A stretch of 21,157 nucleotides of DNA from a virus, in UHGV virus genome UHGV-0323647. One strand, given 5' to 3'. Of the stretch, positions 3,098-20,636 are shown piece after piece. The stretch's first letter is position 1. Each line of letters starts with the position of its first letter. The translations under genes were made by a program, and so were the position numbers. Below the pieces are notes generated by a model. That model saw only the letters and a program-made list of their open reading frames with translations, searched no databases and was not told where the DNA came from.

Positions 3098-5296
3098 ATG
3101 GCAGAAAAAAAGATGACTGACTGGCATCGCAAGGTGCTGTGCAACTTTGATAATGCCTGGTCAGCAACGCAGGATATGCGTGAGCAGATTATTGAGGCTC
3201 AACGTTTCGTCAGGGTGTCCGGCGCACAGTGGGAAGGCAGCACAAACGCTGGTTACTCATTTGATGAAGGCAGGTTTGAGCATTATCCGCGTTTTGAACT
3301 GAATAAGATTGCCCGTGAATGTGATCGCATCATTGGCGAGTATCGACAGAATCGCATCAGCGTTAAATTCAGGCCGAAGGACGATAAGGCATCGGAAGCG
3401 TTAGCCGAAAAGATGAACGGCAAATTCCGCGCTGACTATCAGGAAACATCCGGTGGCGAAGCGTGTGATAACGCATTTGATGATGCTGTAACGGGCGGAT
3501 TCGGTTGTTTCCGCATGTGTGCCGATTACGAAGATGAAATGGATCCGAGTAACGAGCAGCGCCGCATCAGCCTTCTTCCTGTTTACGACCCAGCAACATG
3601 CGTCTTCTTCGATCAGGACAGCAAGCAATATGACCGCTCTGATGCTATGTGGGCTATGGAAATGTTCTCCATGACGCCCAAAGCGTTCGAGGCTGAATAC
3701 CCTGATTCCACCGCGGCAAGCCTTTCTCGTGATGACACTGGCACTCAATATGACTGGTCAACGCCCGATGCCATCTATGTTGGACGCTACTACGAAGTTC
3801 GCATAGAGAAGGTGAAGCTCACGGCGTGGCGCAACCCTGTTAGCGGAGAAACGGCAATCTATGATGAAGAGCAAATCAAAGATATTGTCGACGAGCTAAC
3901 CGATGGCTCATTCGAACTGATTGGCGAGCGAACGGTGAAGAAACGCCGAGTTTATTGCGGTCTTCTGTCTGGCGCTGAATGGCTGGAAGAACCGAAGCGT
4001 ATTCCGGGTGAACATATTCCTCTCATCCCGGTATATGGGCGTCGCTCATTTGTTGATAATCAGGAGCGAATCGAAGGCCACGCAGCAAAAGCGATGGATG
4101 CACAGCGTCTTGAGAACCTGATGGTTTCCATGATTGCAGATAACGCTACTCAGGCTGGCGGTGATGGCATTCCTATCGTGGATGTTGATTTCATTCCCGG
4201 TCCATTAATGAATCACTGGGCAGAGAGGAATAAGAAAAGACCTGCAGTTCTTCCCATGACCAGCAAGAAGGACAAAAACGGAACGGTCATTTCAGAGGCT
4301 CAGGTTGCTGGCTGGACACCTCCGACACAAATGCCACCTGCTCTTGCCGGGCTATTGCAGTACACCGGAACGGCTATTCAGCAAATTACAGGTGCGTCGC
4401 AGCTTGAGAACATGCCGAGCAACGTCGCTACCGATACCGTTGATAGCATCTTTAACCGGATGGATACGCAGTCCTATATCTACATGGACAACATGGCTAA
4501 ATCCATGCGTCGCGCTGGCGTTGTGTGGCTTTCTATGGCGCGTGAGGTCTATGGCAGTGATACGCCGATGCGTATCGTTAATGAGGACGGCAGCGATGAC
4601 GTGGCGCTGATGACTGGTGAAGTGGTTGACCGTCAGACAGGGCAGGTTATCGCGCTTAACGACCTTTCGCAGGGCAACTATGAAGTGACTGTCGATGTCG
4701 GTCAGTCGTTCGCTACTCGCCGTGATGCAACTGTTAAGTCGTTACTTTCCATGCTGGCACTTATCCCACCGGGAACGCCGAAGCACGACCTTGTATCGTC
4801 GATGATTCTTGACAATATGGACGGCGAAGGGATGGACGACCTTAAAGAATACAACCGCAATCAGTTGCTTCTGTCTGGAGTTATCAAACCGAGAACGCCA
4901 GAAGAGCAGCAGATGGTTGAGCAGGCGAAACAACAACAGGCCAGTCAGCCAGATCCGGCTATGGTTGCTGCGCAAGGTCAGCTTCTTGCTGGTCAGGCTG
5001 AATTGCAGAAAGCGCAGAACGAGCAGGCAGCCATTCAGGTTAAAGCATTCCAGGCACAGACTGATGCTCAGGTTGCAGCGGCAAACGTTGTGAAAATCCT
5101 CGCATCTGCTGATAGCCAGCAAAAATCTGATATCCGTGAGGCGCTGAAACTGCTCGGACAGTTCCAGCAACAGCAAGGAGATAATGCCCGTGCTGATGCA
5201 GAGCTTGTCCTGAAAAGTCAGGCACAGGGCCATGCGCAGCGCATGGACATCAGCAGCATCCTGCAAAAATCAACTCAGCAACAACCACAGCAGTAA
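3098..5296 (+). CDS. portal protein (P22 gp1-like)
   Basis: 732 aa ORF starting 2 nt after the terL stop. Size matches P22-type portals (about 725 aa). Long Gln/Ala-rich helical C-terminal extension as in the P22 portal barrel. Confidence 0.92.
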   Translation: MAEKKMTDWHRKVLCNFDNAWSATQDMREQIIEAQRFVRVSGAQWEGSTNAGYSFDEGRFEHYPRFELNKIARECDRIIGEYRQNRISVKFRPKDDKASEALAEKMNGKFRADYQETSGGEACDNAFDDAVTGGFGCFRMCADYEDEMDPSNEQRRISLLPVYDPATCVFFDQDSKQYDRSDAMWAMEMFSMTPKAFEAEYPDSTAASLSRDDTGTQYDWSTPDAIYVGRYYEVRIEKVKLTAWRNPVSGETAIYDEEQIKDIVDELTDGSFELIGERTVKKRRVYCGLLSGAEWLEEPKRIPGEHIPLIPVYGRRSFVDNQERIEGHAAKAMDAQRLENLMVSMIADNATQAGGDGIPIVDVDFIPGPLMNHWAERNKKRPAVLPMTSKKDKNGTVISEAQVAGWTPPTQMPPALAGLLQYTGTAIQQITGASQLENMPSNVATDTVDSIFNRMDTQSYIYMDNMAKSMRRAGVVWLSMAREVYGSDTPMRIVNEDGSDDVALMTGEVVDRQTGQVIALNDLSQGNYEVTVDVGQSFATRRDATVKSLLSMLALIPPGTPKHDLVSSMILDNMDGEGMDDLKEYNRNQLLLSGVIKPRTPEEQQMVEQAKQQQASQPDPAMVAAQGQLLAGQAELQKAQNEQAAIQVKAFQAQTDAQVAAANVVKILASADSQQKSDIREALKLLGQFQQQQGDNARADAELVLKSQAQGHAQRMDISSILQKSTQQQPQQ

Positions 5297-12970: not shown

Positions 12971-15601
12971 ATGGCTAATTACCGTGATTTGTTAGAGCAG
13001 GCTGGCGCACGTTACGGTGTGCCAGAAGGGTTGATGACTGCACTGGGTGCCAAGGAGTCTTCTTACAACCCTGCAGCAGTAAGCTCCTCCGGGGCTGTAG
13101 GATTGACTCAGGTCATGCCTGGGACATGGCGTGATATGGGTTATACCGATGAGCAAATGCAAAACCCCGAATATCAGGCTGACGCTGGCGCGCGCTATCT
13201 GGCAAAGATGTACCAGCAGTTTGGTAACTGGCGTGACGCTCTTCAGGCTTATCACGACGGTCCCGGCAACGTTATGAAGGCAAAGCGTGGTGAATATACG
13301 CCAGGACCTGAAGGCCGCGGTTACGTTGATGATCGCTTTGCTCAATGGGCGGGTGACCCGGTGACAGACTCAACAGTCGAACAGCGCGCCACCTCTGCAA
13401 AGGTACATCCTCAGCAAGACCCTAACAACCCGTTTGCACAACTGGAAGTACAGTCATCCGAACAAGTATCGGCATCAGGTGTGCAGTCAGACCCAAATAA
13501 TCCATTTGCTCAGATTGAGCAGCAGGCAGCCAGTCAGCAGCCACCTCAACCCGTAAGTTCTGTCGCACCGAAACCTGTTCAGCAACAAACAGTTAATCAG
13601 GCCAATAATGAACCAGCACGTGAAGAACCATCATTGATGCAACAAGCTGGCGATTGGCTCACAGGTGGTCAAAGTGCAGGGCAAATTGCAGAGCAGGCTG
13701 GTCGTGGTCTGGTAAACATACCATTTGACGTATTGCAGGGTGGCGCAAGTCTGATTAATGCAATCAGCCAGGGGCTTGGTGGCCCCAAGGTTTTGGATGA
13801 TGTTTATCGTCCAGTAGATCGACCGACAGACCCCTACGCGCAAGCCGGTGAAACAATTGGCGGGTATCTCCTGCCAATTGGTACAGCGGCAAAAGCTGCT
13901 GGAGCGCCAGCAAAGCTCGCTGGAGATATCGGTTCCGCAGGAAACATGATTGCAGGTTCTCTTGCTGATGCTGCAAATCAGGAGGGCGACTTTGCACAAA
14001 ATGCTGCCATTAACGGTGGTATCAATATTGGTGCTCAAGGCGTTCTTTCAGGTGTCGGGCGCGTTATTGCGCCAAGGGTTTCACATGCTCTTGGTGGTGC
14101 AGCACTGAATTCTGCTAATGATGTTTCCAGGATGGCAAAGTCAGGTGCTGGGCGTCAGTCAATTGCCAGTCAGGCCGCTAATGTGTCCGAAGGTGTAGCA
14201 AAAGCGGCTGAGTCTGCTGGAATTGATATAAACGCATTAACACCAGGAATGCGATCTGGAAGTCGTGGAATTGCACAAGCCGAAGGCGCATTGGCATCAA
14301 CACCAGGAATTGTTCAGGACGCCCATCAGACAGCATTTAACGAAATATCATCAAAGTTAAGTCGAAACCTTGATGAATTTGGGGCCGCATCTGGAACGGC
14401 ATCAGAAAAAAGTGCGGCTATAAAACAAAGGATTCTTCAAAATCTTGATCAGATGAAGGATGCCGAGCGCGCGGCATGGGATGACGTGCGGTCAACAATG
14501 CCAAATCAAAAAGCAAGAATGCTAAATGGTAATGCCGTTATTCAGGCAGAGCGATCTGCTGGCATACCGCTTACTCCTGAAATGAAACAGTTTGTTCAGG
14601 CAAACAATCAAGGTGGAGTAACATTTGATGGCATGAAAGCATGGAGAGCGAAATTTGCTGATGCGGAGCAAAAATATAAGCGTAGCGGAGAGGCAAATGC
14701 GGCAAGGAGAGCAGGGGAAATACGCCGGGCAATTACTGATGATATGCGCACAATGGCGGAAAACGGCGGATTTCTTGATGACTGGCAGAAAGCTAATGAT
14801 CTGTCTAAAGCGAGGTTATCAGCACAAGAGAGTGCAGAGTCTGTTTTCGGGCGTGATTTGGCAACAGATGCACTGATTACGAATGGAGTAAAATCCCTTC
14901 AATCATCGTCAGCTAAAGGTCTTAATGGTCCTGCTGGGTTCCATTCTATGATCCGCGCGCTGCCAGAATCAGAGCGTGTTCCTGCTATATCATCAATGTT
15001 GCAAGATGCTATCTCGCATGGTGTACGTGGTGGCAAAGCTGATGCAGCAGGAATTAACCATATCGCAGGGATACTTACCCCACAAAATGTAAAAGCCATT
15101 AGCAGATATTCCTCAGATCTCGGAAGAATTGCTGATGCATATGGCACTCTTGCAAGAGCAGCAGTGAAACCTCAGCAGTATATTGAAAGAACAGGGAGAA
15201 CTGCCAATGTACTACGCGATCTGGATGCTGGTTTATCCAACGTCACATCAACAGTGTTAAATGCAATTGCCAACTCAACATCAGGTGCCATTGTTGGTGG
15301 AGCAGGAGGGGGCATTGCAGGCGCTGCCGCAGGTGCTTTAGTTGGCGCCGGGTTAAAAGGTGCTGTATCTAAAATTGCCACCACACGTAGTGGTCGGTAT
15401 GCGATAGAGAAAGCAGTTCAGGAAGCAACTAAAGCAGTAAGAGCAGGCGGAAGTAAAGAAGCATTAGCGGCGGCGGAACGCAGATTTATGGCAAATAAAG
15501 CTGCCGTAAAAGCGATACGTGATACAGTCGGAAACGAAGAGTTCAATCGCTTAGCGAGGGCTGGCATTGTAGCGTCGCTAAGCGGAATAGCACAGGAGTA
15601 A
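12971..15601 (+). CDS. ejection (internal virion) protein, gp16-position, with N-terminal lytic-transglycosylase (SLT)-like domain
   Basis: 876 aa. The N-terminal roughly 110 aa carry SLT-family motifs (GAKESSYNP with candidate catalytic Glu, [18 protein letters not shown]). The remainder is Ala/Gly/Gln-rich with a hydrophobic Gly-rich segment ([22 protein letters not shown]). Confidence 0.8.
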
Positions 15602-15925
15602 TTAATCATCCATGGATGGATTGAGCTTATCTCGTGTTGATGTGGCGATTTGTCCTACATTTCTAAGCCAAGATTTCAAATCCTTGATATTGTCATTGAT
15701 TTCATGAATATCTTCTTTTTTTAATCTTTTAACATTATTTTCAATAATTTCAATGGATTGCTCAATATCAGATATAGTGAATGATAGTTTGTTCTTCTCA
15801 TCTTTTATTGAGTTTTTAAGTGCTTCGTTCTCAGTCTTGAGGTCAGATATCTTTTGTTTTAAAGATGCCAGTTGGTACTGAACCACAATGAGTGCGATAG
15901 CTATCACGATAACTGTTGTATACAC
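15602..15925 (-). CDS. small membrane-anchored coiled-coil protein (107 aa), unknown function; candidate exclusion/abortive-infection factor
   Basis: GTG start at 15925 preceded on the - strand by AAGGAGG (complement of 15931-15937) with a 5-nt spacer. N-terminal hydrophobic helix YTTVIVIAIALIVVQY, then a K/E-rich helical region. AT-rich. Stop codon directly abuts the gp16-like stop (convergent, zero spacer). Confidence 0.65.
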   Translation of the reverse strand: MYTTVIVIAIALIVVQYQLASLKQKISDLKTENEALKNSIKDEKNKLSFTISDIEQSIEIIENNVKRLKKEDIHEINDNIKDLKSWLRNVGQIATSTRDKLNPSMDD

Positions 15926-16216
15926 ACCAACCTCCTTAGTTTTGTGCAGGATACCAGATGATAATGTATTGGTGGAGTGGTGTGTGAAAACGTGTCAACG
16001 ACAAACCATCCACAACTTGGACGAATGATTTAGCAAAAAGTGCTATTTTTGGTGTTTAGTGTCATAGAAAAGTGAATAGCTCACTTTTCAACATTGCATG
16101 AAACTTGCAGGAAATGTGACATTACCTTATAGGTAACTTCGGCGAAAATGCAGTAAATGTGAAACGTAATGATTTAAACGTGTCGAGAAAGTGGTTGTAA
16201 GTTAGCCTCTGAAGGA

Positions 16217-16245
16217 TTGATGACAGCTTTGTTATGGTATTAAAT
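16217..16245 (+). promoter_or_regulatory. candidate sigma70 promoter for the Panacea-like operon (TTGATG, 15 bp spacer, extended -10 TGgTATTAA)
   Basis: TTGATG at 16217-16222 and TG-n-TATTAA at 16235-16243, in a 368-bp AT-rich divergent intergenic region. Identified by eye only; a perfect TTGACA at 16251-16256 lacks a good -10. Confidence 0.3.
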
Positions 16246-16299
16246 GCAACTTGACACAGTTGTATACATAGCTGCGGCTATCAAGATGGAGGTATGTTT

Positions 16300-16743
16300 A
16301 TGCTCACTTGTTTTGATGTCGCCGACTACTTCTTGGCGCATTGCGATGAAGAAAGTGGCGACATTATCTCTAACCTAAAAATTCAGAAGTTGACGTATTA
16401 TGCCCAAGGGTTTTCTCTGGTTCTTCTGGGTAAGCCGCTATTTAATGAGAAAATTGAAGCCTGGATGCATGGGCCAGTAGTTCCTGAATTGTATCGTAAA
16501 TATAGGGACTGTGGTAACGGAGCTTTACCTGCGCCAGAAAACTTTGACGCTAAAAAATTCAGTGAAGATGAAATTGAATTGCTGGATGAGGTGTATAAAG
16601 TTTATGGTCAGTTTTCTGCCTGGAAACTGCGCAATATGACTCACGAAGAGCAGCCATGGAAAGATGCTTACATTGAGGGTGCGGTTAGCCAAGAAATCAC
16701 ACTTGATTCTATGAAAGGTTTTTTCAAAACGTTAATTAACTGA
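16300..16743 (+). CDS. Panacea-domain (DUF4065, SocA/GepA-like) protein; putative antitoxin/immunity component
   Basis: Segment NLKIQKLTYYAQGFSLVLLGKPLFNEKIEAWMHGPVVPELYRKY matches the conserved core I associate with DUF4065/Panacea proteins. GGAGG at 16288-16292 sits 7 nt before ATG 16300; the ORF-track ATG 16294 is only 1 nt after the SD. Confidence 0.7.
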   Translation: MLTCFDVADYFLAHCDEESGDIISNLKIQKLTYYAQGFSLVLLGKPLFNEKIEAWMHGPVVPELYRKYRDCGNGALPAPENFDAKKFSEDEIELLDEVYKVYGQFSAWKLRNMTHEEQPWKDAYIEGAVSQEITLDSMKGFFKTLIN

Positions 16744-16748
16744 CGTGT

Positions 16749-17171
16749 ATGTCTAGAGTTAAGGGAAGAATAAAACAGAGGGATAAAGAGAGCTCTGCTA
16801 CTGTTGGCCTCTCTATCCATCACGAATCTCATGATGTAGACAAAAGTCCGCCTGTATTTTCTCTTAGATACCTACAAAAGGGGTATTGCCTAGATTGCTG
16901 CCAAAAGCATGAAAAGGCAGCATTTGCAGATAGGCTGTTCAGGTTAAGTCAGATGTCATGGGATGAGATACGAAAATCTGATAAACACGGGCTTGGGACG
17001 GAAAAAATTGCCAGAAACGCGATAAAGGCTCCGATTCCTAAGCATGTTACTCAAGATGTGGATTTCATTGCGTTCAGATTTTGCTCTAAGGCACCTATGG
17101 TTGGTTATAAGATAGGAGCCACTTTTTATGTCTTATGGCTCGACAGGGAGTTCAAGCTATACAAGCACTAA
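16749..17171 (+). CDS. hypothetical protein (140 aa) co-operonic with the Panacea-like gene; candidate toxin/effector partner
   Basis: ATG 5 nt after the upstream stop with no SD of its own, suggesting translational coupling. No recognised domain. Basic N-terminus, CLDCC cysteine cluster, C-terminal strand ...GATFYVLWLDREFKLYKH. Followed immediately by an intrinsic terminator. Confidence 0.6.
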   Translation: MSRVKGRIKQRDKESSATVGLSIHHESHDVDKSPPVFSLRYLQKGYCLDCCQKHEKAAFADRLFRLSQMSWDEIRKSDKHGLGTEKIARNAIKAPIPKHVTQDVDFIAFRFCSKAPMVGYKIGATFYVLWLDREFKLYKH

Positions 17172-17172
17172 T

Positions 17173-17198
17173 AAAACCCACCGTCAGGTGGGTTTTTT
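17173..17198. terminator. intrinsic terminator (potentially bidirectional) ending the Panacea-like operon
   Basis: AAAACCCACC-GTCA-GGTGGGTTTTTT: GC-rich 6-bp stem, tetraloop, T6 tract; A-tract on the 5' side gives a U-run on the other strand too. Confidence 0.75.
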
Positions 17199-17211
17199 AT
17201 AAGGAGCAATC

Positions 17212-17331
17212 ATGATTTACCCATCAAACAACCCACCAGTTTGCCTGATTGGATGCCAGCCTTGCAGTTTTTATGGAATTAATTATGCCATGCTCAAGAG
17301 CCTTGTTAGCATCCAAAATGGTCGAGTCTGA
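17212..17331 (+). CDS. questionable small ORF (39 aa) with strong RBS; may be the 5' part of a frameshifted/decayed gene
   Basis: AAGGAG at 17201-17206, 5-nt spacer, ATG 17212. Product [39 protein letters not shown]. Overlaps long open frames on both strands that lack credible starts. Confidence 0.25.
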
Positions 17332-17614
17332 TATCAGGGATGCCCACCTAATATGGGTTCCGATGTCGATATTGAACGTCTCAACGAAGCGATCAAGATC
17401 GTTATCGAGGCATTTCCCGTACTCTCTCAATCTGGCATGGTCGGCGGCTGGGGAGGCAAAGCCCCATAATAGAGGATGTAACAGGAATCTTGATAATGGG
17501 TTTGCGAAACGTTCTGAGCCAGACGGACCAACGAATCTTTCCGCATGGATGAGACTTAAGAATAAAGAATTACCTCCTTCAGTTCATAACTACTGACAGA
17601 TAACCAACGCAACG

Positions 17615-17639
17615 ACCCAGCTTCGGCTGGGTTTTTTTA
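17615..17639 (+). terminator. strong rho-independent terminator upstream of the tailspike gene
   Basis: ACCCAGC-TTCG-GCTGGGT stem-loop followed by TTTTTTT; same architecture as the 17173-17198 terminator. Confidence 0.8.
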
Positions 17640-17696
17640 TGCCCAAAATTCACCGTAGCCATGCTGCGGCGATTCCTTGTATCTGGAGCAAATTAA

Positions 17697-19475
17697 ATGA
17701 CAGATTCAATAAATGCCAATGTTGTAGTTAGCATGCCTTCGCAACTCTTCACTATGGCGCGTTCTTTTAAAGCCGTAGCCAATGGCAAAATTTATATCGG
17801 TCAGGTTGACACTGACCCGGTAAATCCAGAAAACCAGATTCAGGTTTATGTGGAGAGCGAAGACGGTTCTCACGTTCCTGTTTCTCAACCAATCATCATT
17901 AACGCTGCTGGTTACCCTGTATATAACAGACAGATTGCCAAGTTCGTAACTGTACAGAATCACTCCATGGCTGTGTATGATGCGTATGGTGCACAACAAT
18001 TCTATTATCCTGATCTACTGAAATATTCTCCAGACCAGTTAAGGGCTGAGCTTTCTGGCCCTGATGGCGCATCTCTGGTTGGTTATGGAGATGAAACTGT
18101 CAAAGATGCTCTTGACAATAATGCCCATAAAATAGACACATTGAGGAGTGACTTGGCTGCTGATGATGGCTTTCGCCACATAGGCAACTTTCTCAATTTA
18201 GAGGCGCTGAGGGATTCAATGCCATTAGTTGCTGGAGAAATTGTTTATGTAGCTTCAGCAGCAAGTGCTACAGCAACTGAAAAACATTATGGTGGTGGGT
18301 ATTTCCAGTCTTTCGACAATAGCACATCACAGATTGCCGATGATGGAGGGATTGTTATTGTTCCATCAACTGGAACGTTGGCGTGGCGTCGCATTAATTT
18401 CACGGCCTACGATATGCAGTTTTGGGGGGTTAAGCCTGATGGTGCGACGGATAACGCGGAAGCCATTACGAAGGCGACGCAGTATGCAAAAGATAATCAT
18501 GTTGAACTTGTATTCCCTGCTGGTAATGTAAAGTCCTCACAAGCATTTCCTTTTTACTCCAGAATGTCAGTAAGGGGAGCCGGCAGAGAAAGCTCATTTT
18601 TCAGTAAAACAACAAATAACAAGTTTACCATTACATCAGAGGTGGAAGTAGACGCGCTCATTGTATTCATTCCTGATGTTTATGACCCAAGTGGCGTAAC
18701 TATTGATACATTTTGCTTTAAACCAAAACTTGAGGGCATTACTTTCCAGAGAGATGATTTGACTTCAGATAACATGTGTTACTACAGCGTGTGGGCAGAA
18801 AAATTAGCTGCTCCAATCATGAGGGATTTAAATTTTATAGGGCATTATATCGGAATGTATGGTAAAAACTGGTTTTTATTTGAGGCAACATCTGTTCAGT
18901 TTTTAGGAGTGAACGGTAGAACTTTCCAAGGCATAAGTTGCTTAAATTTGAGTGGGCCAACATACTTCCTTTCAGGAACAAGCCTTAACTGGAATCTTGT
19001 AAGTGTTGTAAACGCACAAAATGCCTACGAAATTTCAGGGCAGCAGTATAGTCATCTTAATAACTGTACAGCAGAAGGAATTAAACCAATGCCAGGAGAG
19101 ACACTTGCCACTGCATTCCGTTTTAAGAATCCTACATCAATAACTTTAACCTCATGCGGAACTGAAAATGTTCAGGGAGAACAATTCAGGATAGAGATGG
19201 CGCCCACACCATCATTTAAAGGTTCGGTTGTAATCAATAACTTTCAAGTTGTGGATCAGGTCAATCCATCCACGCCAACTAAATTTTTTGTTATTGATTC
19301 TGCTAATGTTGGTACATTATCCGTATCATTAATTGGTGGTGAATTAACAAGAAACACTACGCTATCAAACCTACAACAACCAACCGTATCAGGCACAAAC
19401 TGTGTGTTAAATAATGTTGGGTGCTGGGTTGAGTCACCTTCTGTTTCTGGAGGCGCTGTCTACAAGACGCTTTAG
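17697..19475 (+). CDS. tailspike protein: P22-type head-binding N-domain fused to a divergent beta-helix-like receptor-binding/depolymerase body
   Basis: 592 aa. N-terminal roughly 110 aa ([59 protein letters not shown]...) match the P22 gp9 head-binding domain as I recall it. Downstream the sequence turns AT-rich and carries motifs typical of pectate-lyase-like tailspikes ([23 protein letters not shown]). Confidence 0.9.
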
Positions 19476-19476
19476 A

Positions 19477-19506
19477 ATGAGAGGCGGGTAGCCGCCTCAT
19501 TTTTTG
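19477..19506. terminator. bidirectional intrinsic terminator shared by convergent tailspike and acyltransferase genes
   Basis: AATGAGAGGCGG-GTA-GCCGCCTCATT hairpin followed by TTTTT on the + strand. The minus-strand acyltransferase stop codon lies inside the stem. Confidence 0.7.
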
Positions 19507-20636
19507 ATGAATCTGTACTCTACATACTTAAACGTGTATGCAGTGACAATTGTTGTAATAGATACAAGAGATAGTATAAGCGTCCAAAATCCAACGGCAG
19601 ATATATTATTTAAATTGAATATAAAGCCAATAAATTTTATAACCAATGCGTTAATTATTAGGTGAAGAAGATAAGAGCTATAACTAGCCTCGCCAAGATA
19701 GACAAGAGGTTTAAATGTGAAAACGGAAGGCTTTGTCATTACAATTACATTAAATAGGAGAGTGGTTATTAAAAACCTTTCCCATCCATATCCGCTAAAC
19801 ATCGTGTAAAGTAAGTAAATAATAGTTAATGCTGAAGCAGCGGAAAAGAAATTGTTTGTTATCTTATTGCTACTTAACATTACAGATACCATTTTCATCC
19901 TATTGAAAAGAATGGCAGACAAAGCTCCAGATATAAAATAAACCCAAACAACCTGCCCAGAATACAAGTCATTTGCTGCATATCCAACTGAGAGCACAGA
20001 ACCGATAACTGCAATTGATTTGAATCTAATAGCTGCACATATCACTGGAAGCATGCAATAGAATTTCCATTCATATGGAAGTGTCCATATCACCGCGTTT
20101 AATGAGTAAGTCCTGAATCCATTCACCCATATATCACTTCCGAAAAATCCAAAGCCAAATAGATTTATTGCCTGCCTTGCTGTTGTAGTTAAATCCTGAC
20201 CACCATGCGACCACATCAATGTAAGAACTAGAACTATAGTTGATGCTATCATGTACATAGGAACAAGGCGTTTAACTCGAGATACGAAAAACATCTCCCA
20301 GTTAATTTTATTGCCTGTTTTTATGATCTTATCAAAGAATAAAAAACCTGTTATACAAAAGAAAATTTGCACACCAACATCACCAGCATGAGCGAAAACC
20401 CAGAAGTTAGATGTGTTAACTGATAATGGATTAAATCCATTATTTGACAGAGAAAATACAGCATGGTTTAAAACAACAAGAAGAGCCGCTATACCTCGAA
20501 TGCCATCAATATGAAGATAACGCTTCCCTGAGAAATCAATATGATTGTAAAAGTTAAAGCATACAAAGACTCTGTTTATTCCCATTGATGCCGCAAGACA
20601 TAACAAGGCAATCCCAATATTAAATAAAGTTTCCAT
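19497..20636 (-). CDS. oac: integral-membrane Acyltransferase-3 family protein; likely O-antigen O-acetyltransferase (serotype-conversion gene)
   Basis: 379 aa, many hydrophobic segments. N-terminal signature RYLHIDGIRGIAALLVVLNHAVF typical of Acyltransferase-3 proteins. Strongly AT-rich. Located between tailspike and integrase, where Sf6 carries oac. The symbol is by analogy, not proven orthology. Confidence 0.8.
   Translation of the reverse strand: METLFNIGIALLCLAASMGINRVFVCFNFYNHIDFSGKRYLHIDGIRGIAALLVVLNHAVFSLSNNGFNPLSVNTSNFWVFAHAGDVGVQIFFCITGFLFFDKIIKTGNKINWEMFFVSRVKRLVPMYMIASTIVLVLTLMWSHGGQDLTTTARQAINLFGFGFFGSDIWVNGFRTYSLNAVIWTLPYEWKFYCMLPVICAAIRFKSIAVIGSVLSVGYAANDLYSGQVVWVYFISGALSAILFNRMKMVSVMLSSNKITNNFFSAASALTIIYLLYTMFSGYGWERFLITTLLFNVIVMTKPSVFTFKPLVYLGEASYSSYLLHLIINALVIKFIGFIFNLNNISAVGFWTLILSLVSITTIVTAYTFKYVEYRFIKK

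Follow-up and report, generated by a model that had tools for sequence, protein, structure and literature searches.

A probable deletion scar in the ant moron slot upstream of the tailspike gene of a P22-like phage

The stretch at 17199-17614 of the 21,157-nt virus genome UHGV-0323647 (this whole sequence is referred to below as the window) is very probably what a deletion has left of the immI-type 'ant moron' in a P22-like phage or prophage (Lederbergvirus), a scar without function. It combines the 3' end of a gene for a ClpP-like protease with the last codons of ant, on opposite strands. A first-pass annotation had proposed for the same stretch either a recently frameshifted or N-terminally truncated gene, left over from a former exclusion or regulatory gene, or a non-coding RNA locus with defined ends. 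The stretch is a case of ordinary gene decay at a locus known to degrade and contains no new gene or RNA. Since degraded ant morons, like microhomology deletions, have been well documented, the finding is already known in kind; it adds a cleanly resolved example of ant moron decay, and the only lead of wider interest is the prophage ClpP paralogue encoded by the intact relatives.

Genomic context

The window represents the late region of a P22-like phage or prophage of the genus Lederbergvirus, with the best matches over its whole length being to phages Huey, CUS-3, Sf101, E212 and EC.P3 (94-96% identity over 50-65% of the window). The stretch 17199-17614 sits between a gene-16-type ejection-protein gene and the tailspike gene, in synteny with epsilon34, Emek, CUS-3 and S88. 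The tailspike gene as the downstream neighbour identifies the locus as the slot between genes 16 and 9, which is the location of the P22-type immI region. In P22, this slot holds mnt-arc-ant and has been termed the 'ant moron' by Villafane et al., according to whom it is the most fluid region of the late operon, with the highest flux (PMC2629481). The features of the window that are relevant to the analysis are the following:

12971-15601: SLT-domain ejection protein (domain search)
17173-17198: left intrinsic terminator, ACCCACC-GTCA-GGTGGGT-T6, arranged as A4-stem-loop-stem-T6 (folding)
17201-17331, plus strand: AAGGAG, ATG and a 39-codon open reading frame (ORF), a shadow ORF antisense to the 3' end of the ClpP-like gene
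17224-17522, minus strand: 3' fragment of the ClpP-like protease gene, residues about 81-178 of 178 and the stop codon (BLASTP, DNA alignment)
17515-17522: deletion junction, with the single kept copy of the 8-bp direct repeat TGAGCCAG (three-way alignment)
17515-17596, plus strand: last 27 codons and stop codon of ant, 26 of the 27 amino acids identical to EC.P3 Ant residues 266-292
17615-17639, plus strand: right intrinsic terminator, which is the ant terminator, ACCCAGC-TTCG-GCTGGGT-T7 (terminator scan, folding)
17697-19475, plus strand: tailspike gene (PF09008 Head_binding, 1.5e-61), homologous to the tailspike starts of P22-like phages
19497-20636, minus strand: Acyl_transf_3 protein (domain search)

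Directly after the ejection-protein gene, on the opposite strand, a gene at 15602-15925 (minus strand) encodes a 107-aa coiled-coil-like protein (phrog_5962) and occupies the position of hkcB in HK620, CUS-3 and epsilon34. Two plus-strand genes lie further downstream: 16294-16743, encoding a Panacea/SocA-domain antitoxin-like protein (PF13274, 2.2e-24), and 16749-17171, which begins 5 bp past the Panacea gene and encodes a 140-aa protein (phrog_8366) with weak matches to PADLOC NsnC (1.8e-7) and the NCBIfam MAG6450 family (1.9e-5). The two genes probably constitute a PanA-type toxin-antitoxin or defence moron; in the S88 and ExPEC XM prophages, their slot is taken by a YafO-family toxin pair. 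Beyond the stretch, 3' of the tailspike gene and on the opposite strand, the Acyl_transf_3 gene encodes a 379-aa membrane acyltransferase that is likely to be an O-antigen-modifying (lysogenic conversion) protein.

The intact module in relatives

In the intact relatives, the order of genes is ClpP-like protease (178 aa, minus strand), Mnt-like repressor (82 aa, minus strand), Arc (50 aa, plus strand), a small ORF (plus strand) and Ant (about 292-300 aa, plus strand), followed by the tailspike gene or, in PhiR12_1, by the tail gene K instead. As judged by annotations, this arrangement is present in EC.P3, phiv205-1, PhiR12_1 and the Escherichia coli S88 prophage. Comparison with phage genomes, from which the first-pass annotation expected an intact homologue and the position of a frameshift, thus yielded an entire intact module (in EC.P3, phiv205-1 and PhiR12_1) but no frameshift. 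Pfam searches with the intact proteins recovered CLP_protease (4.3e-12) for the protease, Arc for both the Mnt-like repressor (9.6e-11) and Arc itself (1.9e-11), and Bro-N plus P22_AR_C for the 292-aa Ant. The parental module of the window is the variant with the ClpP-like gene downstream of the mnt-like gene, whereas the P22-type module of epsilon34 has no ClpP-like gene.

Two gene fragments meeting at an 8-bp repeat

Comparison of 17150-17700 with phage records by megablast resolved the region into two blocks that overlap by a few bases. The left block, extending to about 17522-17534, matches EC.P3, phiv205-1, E212 and the lambdoid PhiR12 phages beneath a minus-strand gene of 537 bp. The right block starts at 17515; its counterparts, with 98-99.5% identity, are the ant 3' end, the ant terminator and the beginning of the tailspike gene, as present in Emek, Kapi1, epsilon34, CUS-3 and many other phages. 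The same division is apparent in pairwise BLAST: window 16001-17522 corresponds to 1352-2873 of the EC.P3 locus (99.7% identity, as is that to E212), and window 17515-17800 to 4752-5037 of the same locus (97.9%). In the three-way alignment at the junction, the left EC.P3 parent is perfect to 17522 and the right parent is perfect from 17515. The eight shared positions, TGAGCCAG, occur at both EC.P3 parental sites as direct repeats 1886 bp apart. Microhomology of at least 8 bp would be encountered at a random joint with a chance of about 1e-4, and the ClpP-like gene and ant of EC.P3 have just 16 shared 8-mer positions. A repeat of 8 bp also seems too short for an assembly collapse.

The minus-strand fragment amounts to the 3' 55% of the ClpP-like gene. 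In BLASTP, 95 of 99 amino acids are identical to EC.P3 residues 80-178 (E 6e-73), and at the DNA level, the fragment aligns without gaps to six relatives with 98.6-99.1% identity; among these seven sequences, only one change in 349 bp is specific to the window. The fragment retains His95 and the C-terminal half of the protein and has neither a start codon nor a ribosome-binding site, promoter or the catalytic Ser72. Starting at about residue 81, it falls short of a full ClpP / peptidase S14 (PF00574) domain, and the Pfam search returned no match for it. With the ancestral ATG deleted, the first start-type codon is the TTG at 17430, which has no Shine-Dalgarno (SD) sequence upstream, so that the fragment does not constitute a translatable gene. 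The plus-strand fragment lies just downstream of the P22AR C-terminal domain of Ant and, with only the last 27 codons left, is far from an intact ant; its DNA is 98-99.5% identical to the ant 3' ends of Emek, Kapi1, epsilon34 and CUS-3.

These matches bear out the proposal of a degraded, N-terminally truncated remnant, which was incomplete in that there are two 3' fragments, on opposite strands, and one 1886-bp deletion behind both of them. By contrast, a recent frameshift, or a homopolymer error in sequencing, is rejected by the gap-free alignment to the relatives on both sides of the single joint. Neither does the remnant derive from an exclusion gene; the gene order of the intact relatives makes it part of the immI/ant moron.

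Relative to the intact module, about 1886 bp are missing, including the first ~80 codons of the protease gene (with the ATG and Ser72), the mnt-like gene, the divergent promoter region, arc, the small ORF and ~265 codons of ant. In P22, divergent promoters of this type are named Pmnt and Pant. The Mnt and Arc repressors, the Pmnt/Pant promoters and sar that characterize an immI region all fall inside the 1886 bp missing from the window, and the ORF list for 17199-17614 contains no Arc-family ORF. Thus, compared with P22 immI, the window shares the slot, the ant 3' end, the ant terminator and the boundary sequence (DNA identity of 98-99.5% with Emek, epsilon34 and CUS-3) and keeps 27 ant codons, but is devoid of mnt, arc, the sar region and the two promoters.

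The ancestor would have carried, from the left terminator to the tailspike gene, the ClpP-like gene (minus strand), the mnt-like ribbon-helix-helix repressor gene (minus strand), the divergent promoters, arc, the small ORF and ant (all three on the plus strand). We infer that RecA-independent slipped mispairing or illegitimate recombination between the two direct copies of TGAGCCAG, one in the ClpP-like gene and the other in ant, removed ~1886 bp and retained one repeat copy. Such an event would have left over the two 3' gene fragments tail-to-head on opposite strands, that is, protease residues about 81-178 and the last 27 ant codons. The outcome does not differ from that of microhomology (slipped-mispairing) deletions in phage and bacterial DNA, of which it would be a textbook example, with one 8-bp copy kept at the joint and the intervening 1886 bp gone.

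The phage is predicted to be devoid of antirepressor-based secondary immunity, like phage L, Sf6 and HK620, and should be scored as such. Phage L has been described as a natural phage without functional immI (PMC8022706), and degraded ant genes, comparable to that of the window, were reported in HK620 and Scho1 (PMC2629481).

A rare derivative of a frequently damaged module

The junction of the window has no contiguous megablast match in 50,697 phage records or 5426 E. coli genomes, and an exact 30-mer across the joint was not found in IMG/VR, GTDB genomes or JGI metagenomes. The ClpP-like gene is carried by 128 of the 5426 complete E. coli genomes, and for 126 of these 128, the best match spans 80% of the gene or more. 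Taken together, the absence of the junction elsewhere and the predominance of the intact gene suggest that the intact state is ancestral and the window a rare derivative; judging from these sequence comparisons, the junction looks like the derived state, produced by deletion rather than being the starting point of an insertion. Given that the remnant is about 99% identical to the intact copies, the deletion was probably recent. For the same reason, and with a single window-specific change in 349 bp, sequence decay neither proves nor dates the loss of function.

At least three further lesions of the same module have arisen independently. ExPEC XM has a 1.35-kb deletion with 4-bp microhomology (AAAG) at other points of the ClpP-like gene and ant (locus L005, 3190-3255). 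In ETEC1749, the protease gene is cut at 313 bp by another mosaic joint (L010, 2501-2813), amounting to a mosaic replacement. E212 retains the protease gene, with the mnt-arc-ant core replaced by 313 bp (L001, 3632-3944) that match the 3' end of IS100 (IS21 family, IstB end) and of which other E. coli and Yersinia phage records contain copies with 98-99% identity; this filler region is devoid of any annotation. Together with the window, there are therefore four independent lesions of the module, namely, two microhomology deletions (of 8 bp and 4 bp), a deletion associated with IS100 and a mosaic replacement, which agrees with the published flux of the slot, the highest in the late operon (PMC2629481).

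Open reading frames of the scar

The two long open frames that drew attention to the stretch are present as described: counting the stop, the plus-strand frame extends for 116 codons (17249-17596) and the minus-strand frame for 120 codons (17583-17224), both well over 100 codons. The accompanying statement that a TTG is the only conventional start in either frame is mistaken, because the plus-strand frame includes five internal ATG codons (17273, 17285, 17318, 17363 and 17549) plus two further TTGs; in the minus-strand frame, the start-type codons are two TTGs only (17430 and 17316). None of the candidate starts in the two frames lies behind an SD-like sequence. Frames of such length are not unusual in the window, which contains 36 ORFs of at least 100 aa, many overlapping larger ORFs, and many of the 36 look like shadow frames themselves. 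The plus-strand shadow frame of the ClpP-like gene is also open in the intact EC.P3, over 106 codons. The long plus-strand frame is this protease shadow frame joined by chance, through the deletion, in frame to the tail of ant, and the long minus-strand frame is the old protease frame (98 codons), which by chance stays open for ~20 further codons through antisense ant sequence. Neither would be expected as an expressed protein.

The 39-codon frame behind an SD sequence was likewise confirmed, with AAGGAG at 17201-17206, the ATG at 17212, a spacing of 5 nt between them and an ORF spanning 17212-17331. The same ATG in EC.P3 opens an 85-codon shadow ORF, of which the ORF of the window is a stump: a C-to-A substitution at 17331, found in the window only among the seven sequences, creates its TGA stop codon. 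The SD sequence and ATG belong to a terminator block of 56 bp that is common to Emek, where they start a different, coiled-coil-like orf61. This block (window 17160-17215 versus Emek 2601-2656, 98% identical) comprises the end of the upstream gene, the terminator and the SD-ATG motif, and because the sequence beyond the Emek ATG is unrelated, a mosaic joint must lie within a few bases 3' of the ATG. The motif at 17201-17214 is thus best seen as a relic at a mosaic joint, and the 39-codon ORF most likely does not represent a gene. PGAP annotated the antisense shadow frame of 85 aa as a hypothetical protein (WP_021522817.1) in ExPEC XM and ETEC1749, the two genomes examined that have a cut ClpP-like gene; this annotation is probably a gene-calling artefact. 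For annotation purposes, neither the two long frames nor the 39-codon ORF should be called as genes.

It is conceivable that the scar nevertheless encodes a product, either from the 39-codon ORF via late read-through or as a 68-aa C-terminal ClpP fragment from TTG 17430 that would be dominant-negative on host ClpP. AAGGAG at 5 nt before the ATG, the use of the same motif for the plausible orf61 in Emek, and the retention of His95 and the C-terminal half in the ClpP-like remnant are all compatible with such a possibility. However, the 39-codon ORF is shortened by a single window-specific substitution from a shadow ORF antisense to a bona fide gene, and its sequence, tested as part of the frames, has no Pfam match, whereas TTG 17430 has no SD sequence, the promoter region of the module itself is deleted, and the sole minus-strand promoter-like site (17309-17282, 9/12) lies downstream of this TTG. 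We consider an encoded product highly unlikely.

On the reading as a deletion scar, the loss of the moron's own promoters implies that the DNA is presumably transcribed only by read-through. By analogy with P22 biology, an antiterminated late-operon polymerase would read through both terminators into the tailspike gene (PMC2629481). A good SD sequence and ATG on the late-operon strand being available at 17201-17214, a 39-aa peptide could in principle be made.

The flanking terminators

Two intrinsic terminators with a hairpin and a T-run flank the stretch, as had been noted, and both fold far better than shuffled sequences. The left one (17165-17205) has folding energies of -15.8 and -15.4 kcal/mol on the plus and minus strands, respectively (z about -3.9 on both strands), and the right one (17605-17645) of -14.5 kcal/mol (z = -2.7). 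A terminator pattern scan listed only 17615-17639; the left terminator was, we assume, overlooked due to its A4/T6 flanks, which allow the stem to extend into the T-run. Its A4 and T6 flanks and equal folding on both strands indicate that it is probably bidirectional. In the intact relatives it closes the minus-strand ClpP-like gene, and in the window also the plus-strand gene 16749-17171, such that it is probably shared by the plus-strand gene ending at 17171 and the minus-strand gene ending at 17224. It further coincides with a mosaic boundary common to Emek and PhiR12_1, with the homology to PhiR12_1 beginning at 17177, and Emek has a rho-independent terminator annotated at the corresponding position. 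The right terminator is part of the conserved sequence that marks the boundary of ant with the tailspike gene. The epsilon34 and Emek annotations list it as rho-independent, and that of CUS-3 gives it as 'bsq1 boundary sequence'.

The first-pass annotation had noted a near-identical architecture of the two terminators. The resemblance is generic only (GC stem, 4-nt loop and T-run) and does not speak for a duplication. A duplication origin was also dropped given that, according to the Emek and epsilon34 annotations, each terminator came along with a module of its own.

A non-coding RNA locus, or a cis-acting attenuator with ends set by the terminators, for example, a spacer that tunes late transcription into the tailspike gene, is extremely unlikely. 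The idea draws on the tandem arrangement of the two terminators, at a distance of 440 bp and immediately before the tailspike gene, and on the proposal that the P22 ant moron affects tailspike dosage through the frequency of read-through (PMC2629481). The 'defined ends', however, are terminators of the usual kind that belong to the adjacent modules, as annotated in Emek and epsilon34, and both are inherited unchanged, and the interior demonstrably consists of two coding fragments; an attenuator effect, if any, would come from the terminators and not from the 400 bp between them. The RNA structure analysis that had been suggested for the stretch yielded folding no better than that of shuffled sequences on either strand (z = 0.06 for the plus and 1.20 for the minus strand); the six DNA relatives of the stretch are all at least 98.6% identical. 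An Rfam scan (E up to 1) returned four sub-threshold matches (17-21 bits versus gathering scores of 43-80), all on the left terminator hairpin and none to sar; the best had 21 bits against a threshold of 70. A consensus promoter scan found no plus-strand site in the stretch and one weak minus-strand site at 17309-17282, and the three promoter-like sites found compare with 4.2 expected from shuffled sequences. Hence, with neither a curated RNA family nor folding in excess of shuffles nor a plus-strand promoter-like site, the RNA locus envisaged in the first-pass annotation is not borne out.

The ClpP-like protease of the intact relatives

The 178-aa protein of the intact module carries the RefSeq name 'ATP-dependent Clp protease proteolytic subunit' (WP_000903306.1 in S88) and is recognized as a member of PF00574 (46.7 bits; cut-off, 20.2). 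Among solved structures, its closest relative is PDB 9uxt, with which it aligns over the full length (E 4.6e-35), Ser72 and His95 being matched to the catalytic S73 and H96. 9uxt is ClpP1 of Pseudomonas plecoglossicida (PpClpP1), an N-terminally short, non-canonical ClpP paralogue, and the intact phage protein is alike in this respect. On our reading of the alignment, the third triad position of the phage protein appears to be neither the canonical Asp nor the Pro of PpClpP1. The N-terminus of PpClpP1 is said to resemble that of P. aeruginosa ClpP2, and PpClpP1 forms mixed rings with the canonical ClpP, thereby remodelling ClpXP (PMC12900304). Compared to PpClpP1, the window retains only residues about 81-178, without the catalytic Ser.

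In the intact relatives, the ClpP-like gene and the mnt-like gene share 1 bp, which suggests that the former is probably a co-transcribed, lysogen-expressed operon partner of the latter. A literature search for a ClpP-like gene in the ant moron or a prophage ClpP paralogue found no paper, and PADLOC gave no match for the protein, so that its assignment to a defence system was rejected. By analogy with PpClpP1 (PMC12900304), the intact paralogue might serve lysogens as an accessory protease that remodels the host ClpXP, with the micro-ORF or C-terminal ClpP fragment of the scar being functional, for instance, against host ClpP assembly; we regard this combination as highly improbable. If it were true, the repeated loss of the ClpP paralogue together with ant would mark dispensable cargo. 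At the comparison loci, the ClpP-like gene is found at L002 2575-3111 (minus strand) and L006 3845-4381 (minus strand), and the lambdoid PhiR12 phages carry it as well, placed between L and K in the tail operon.
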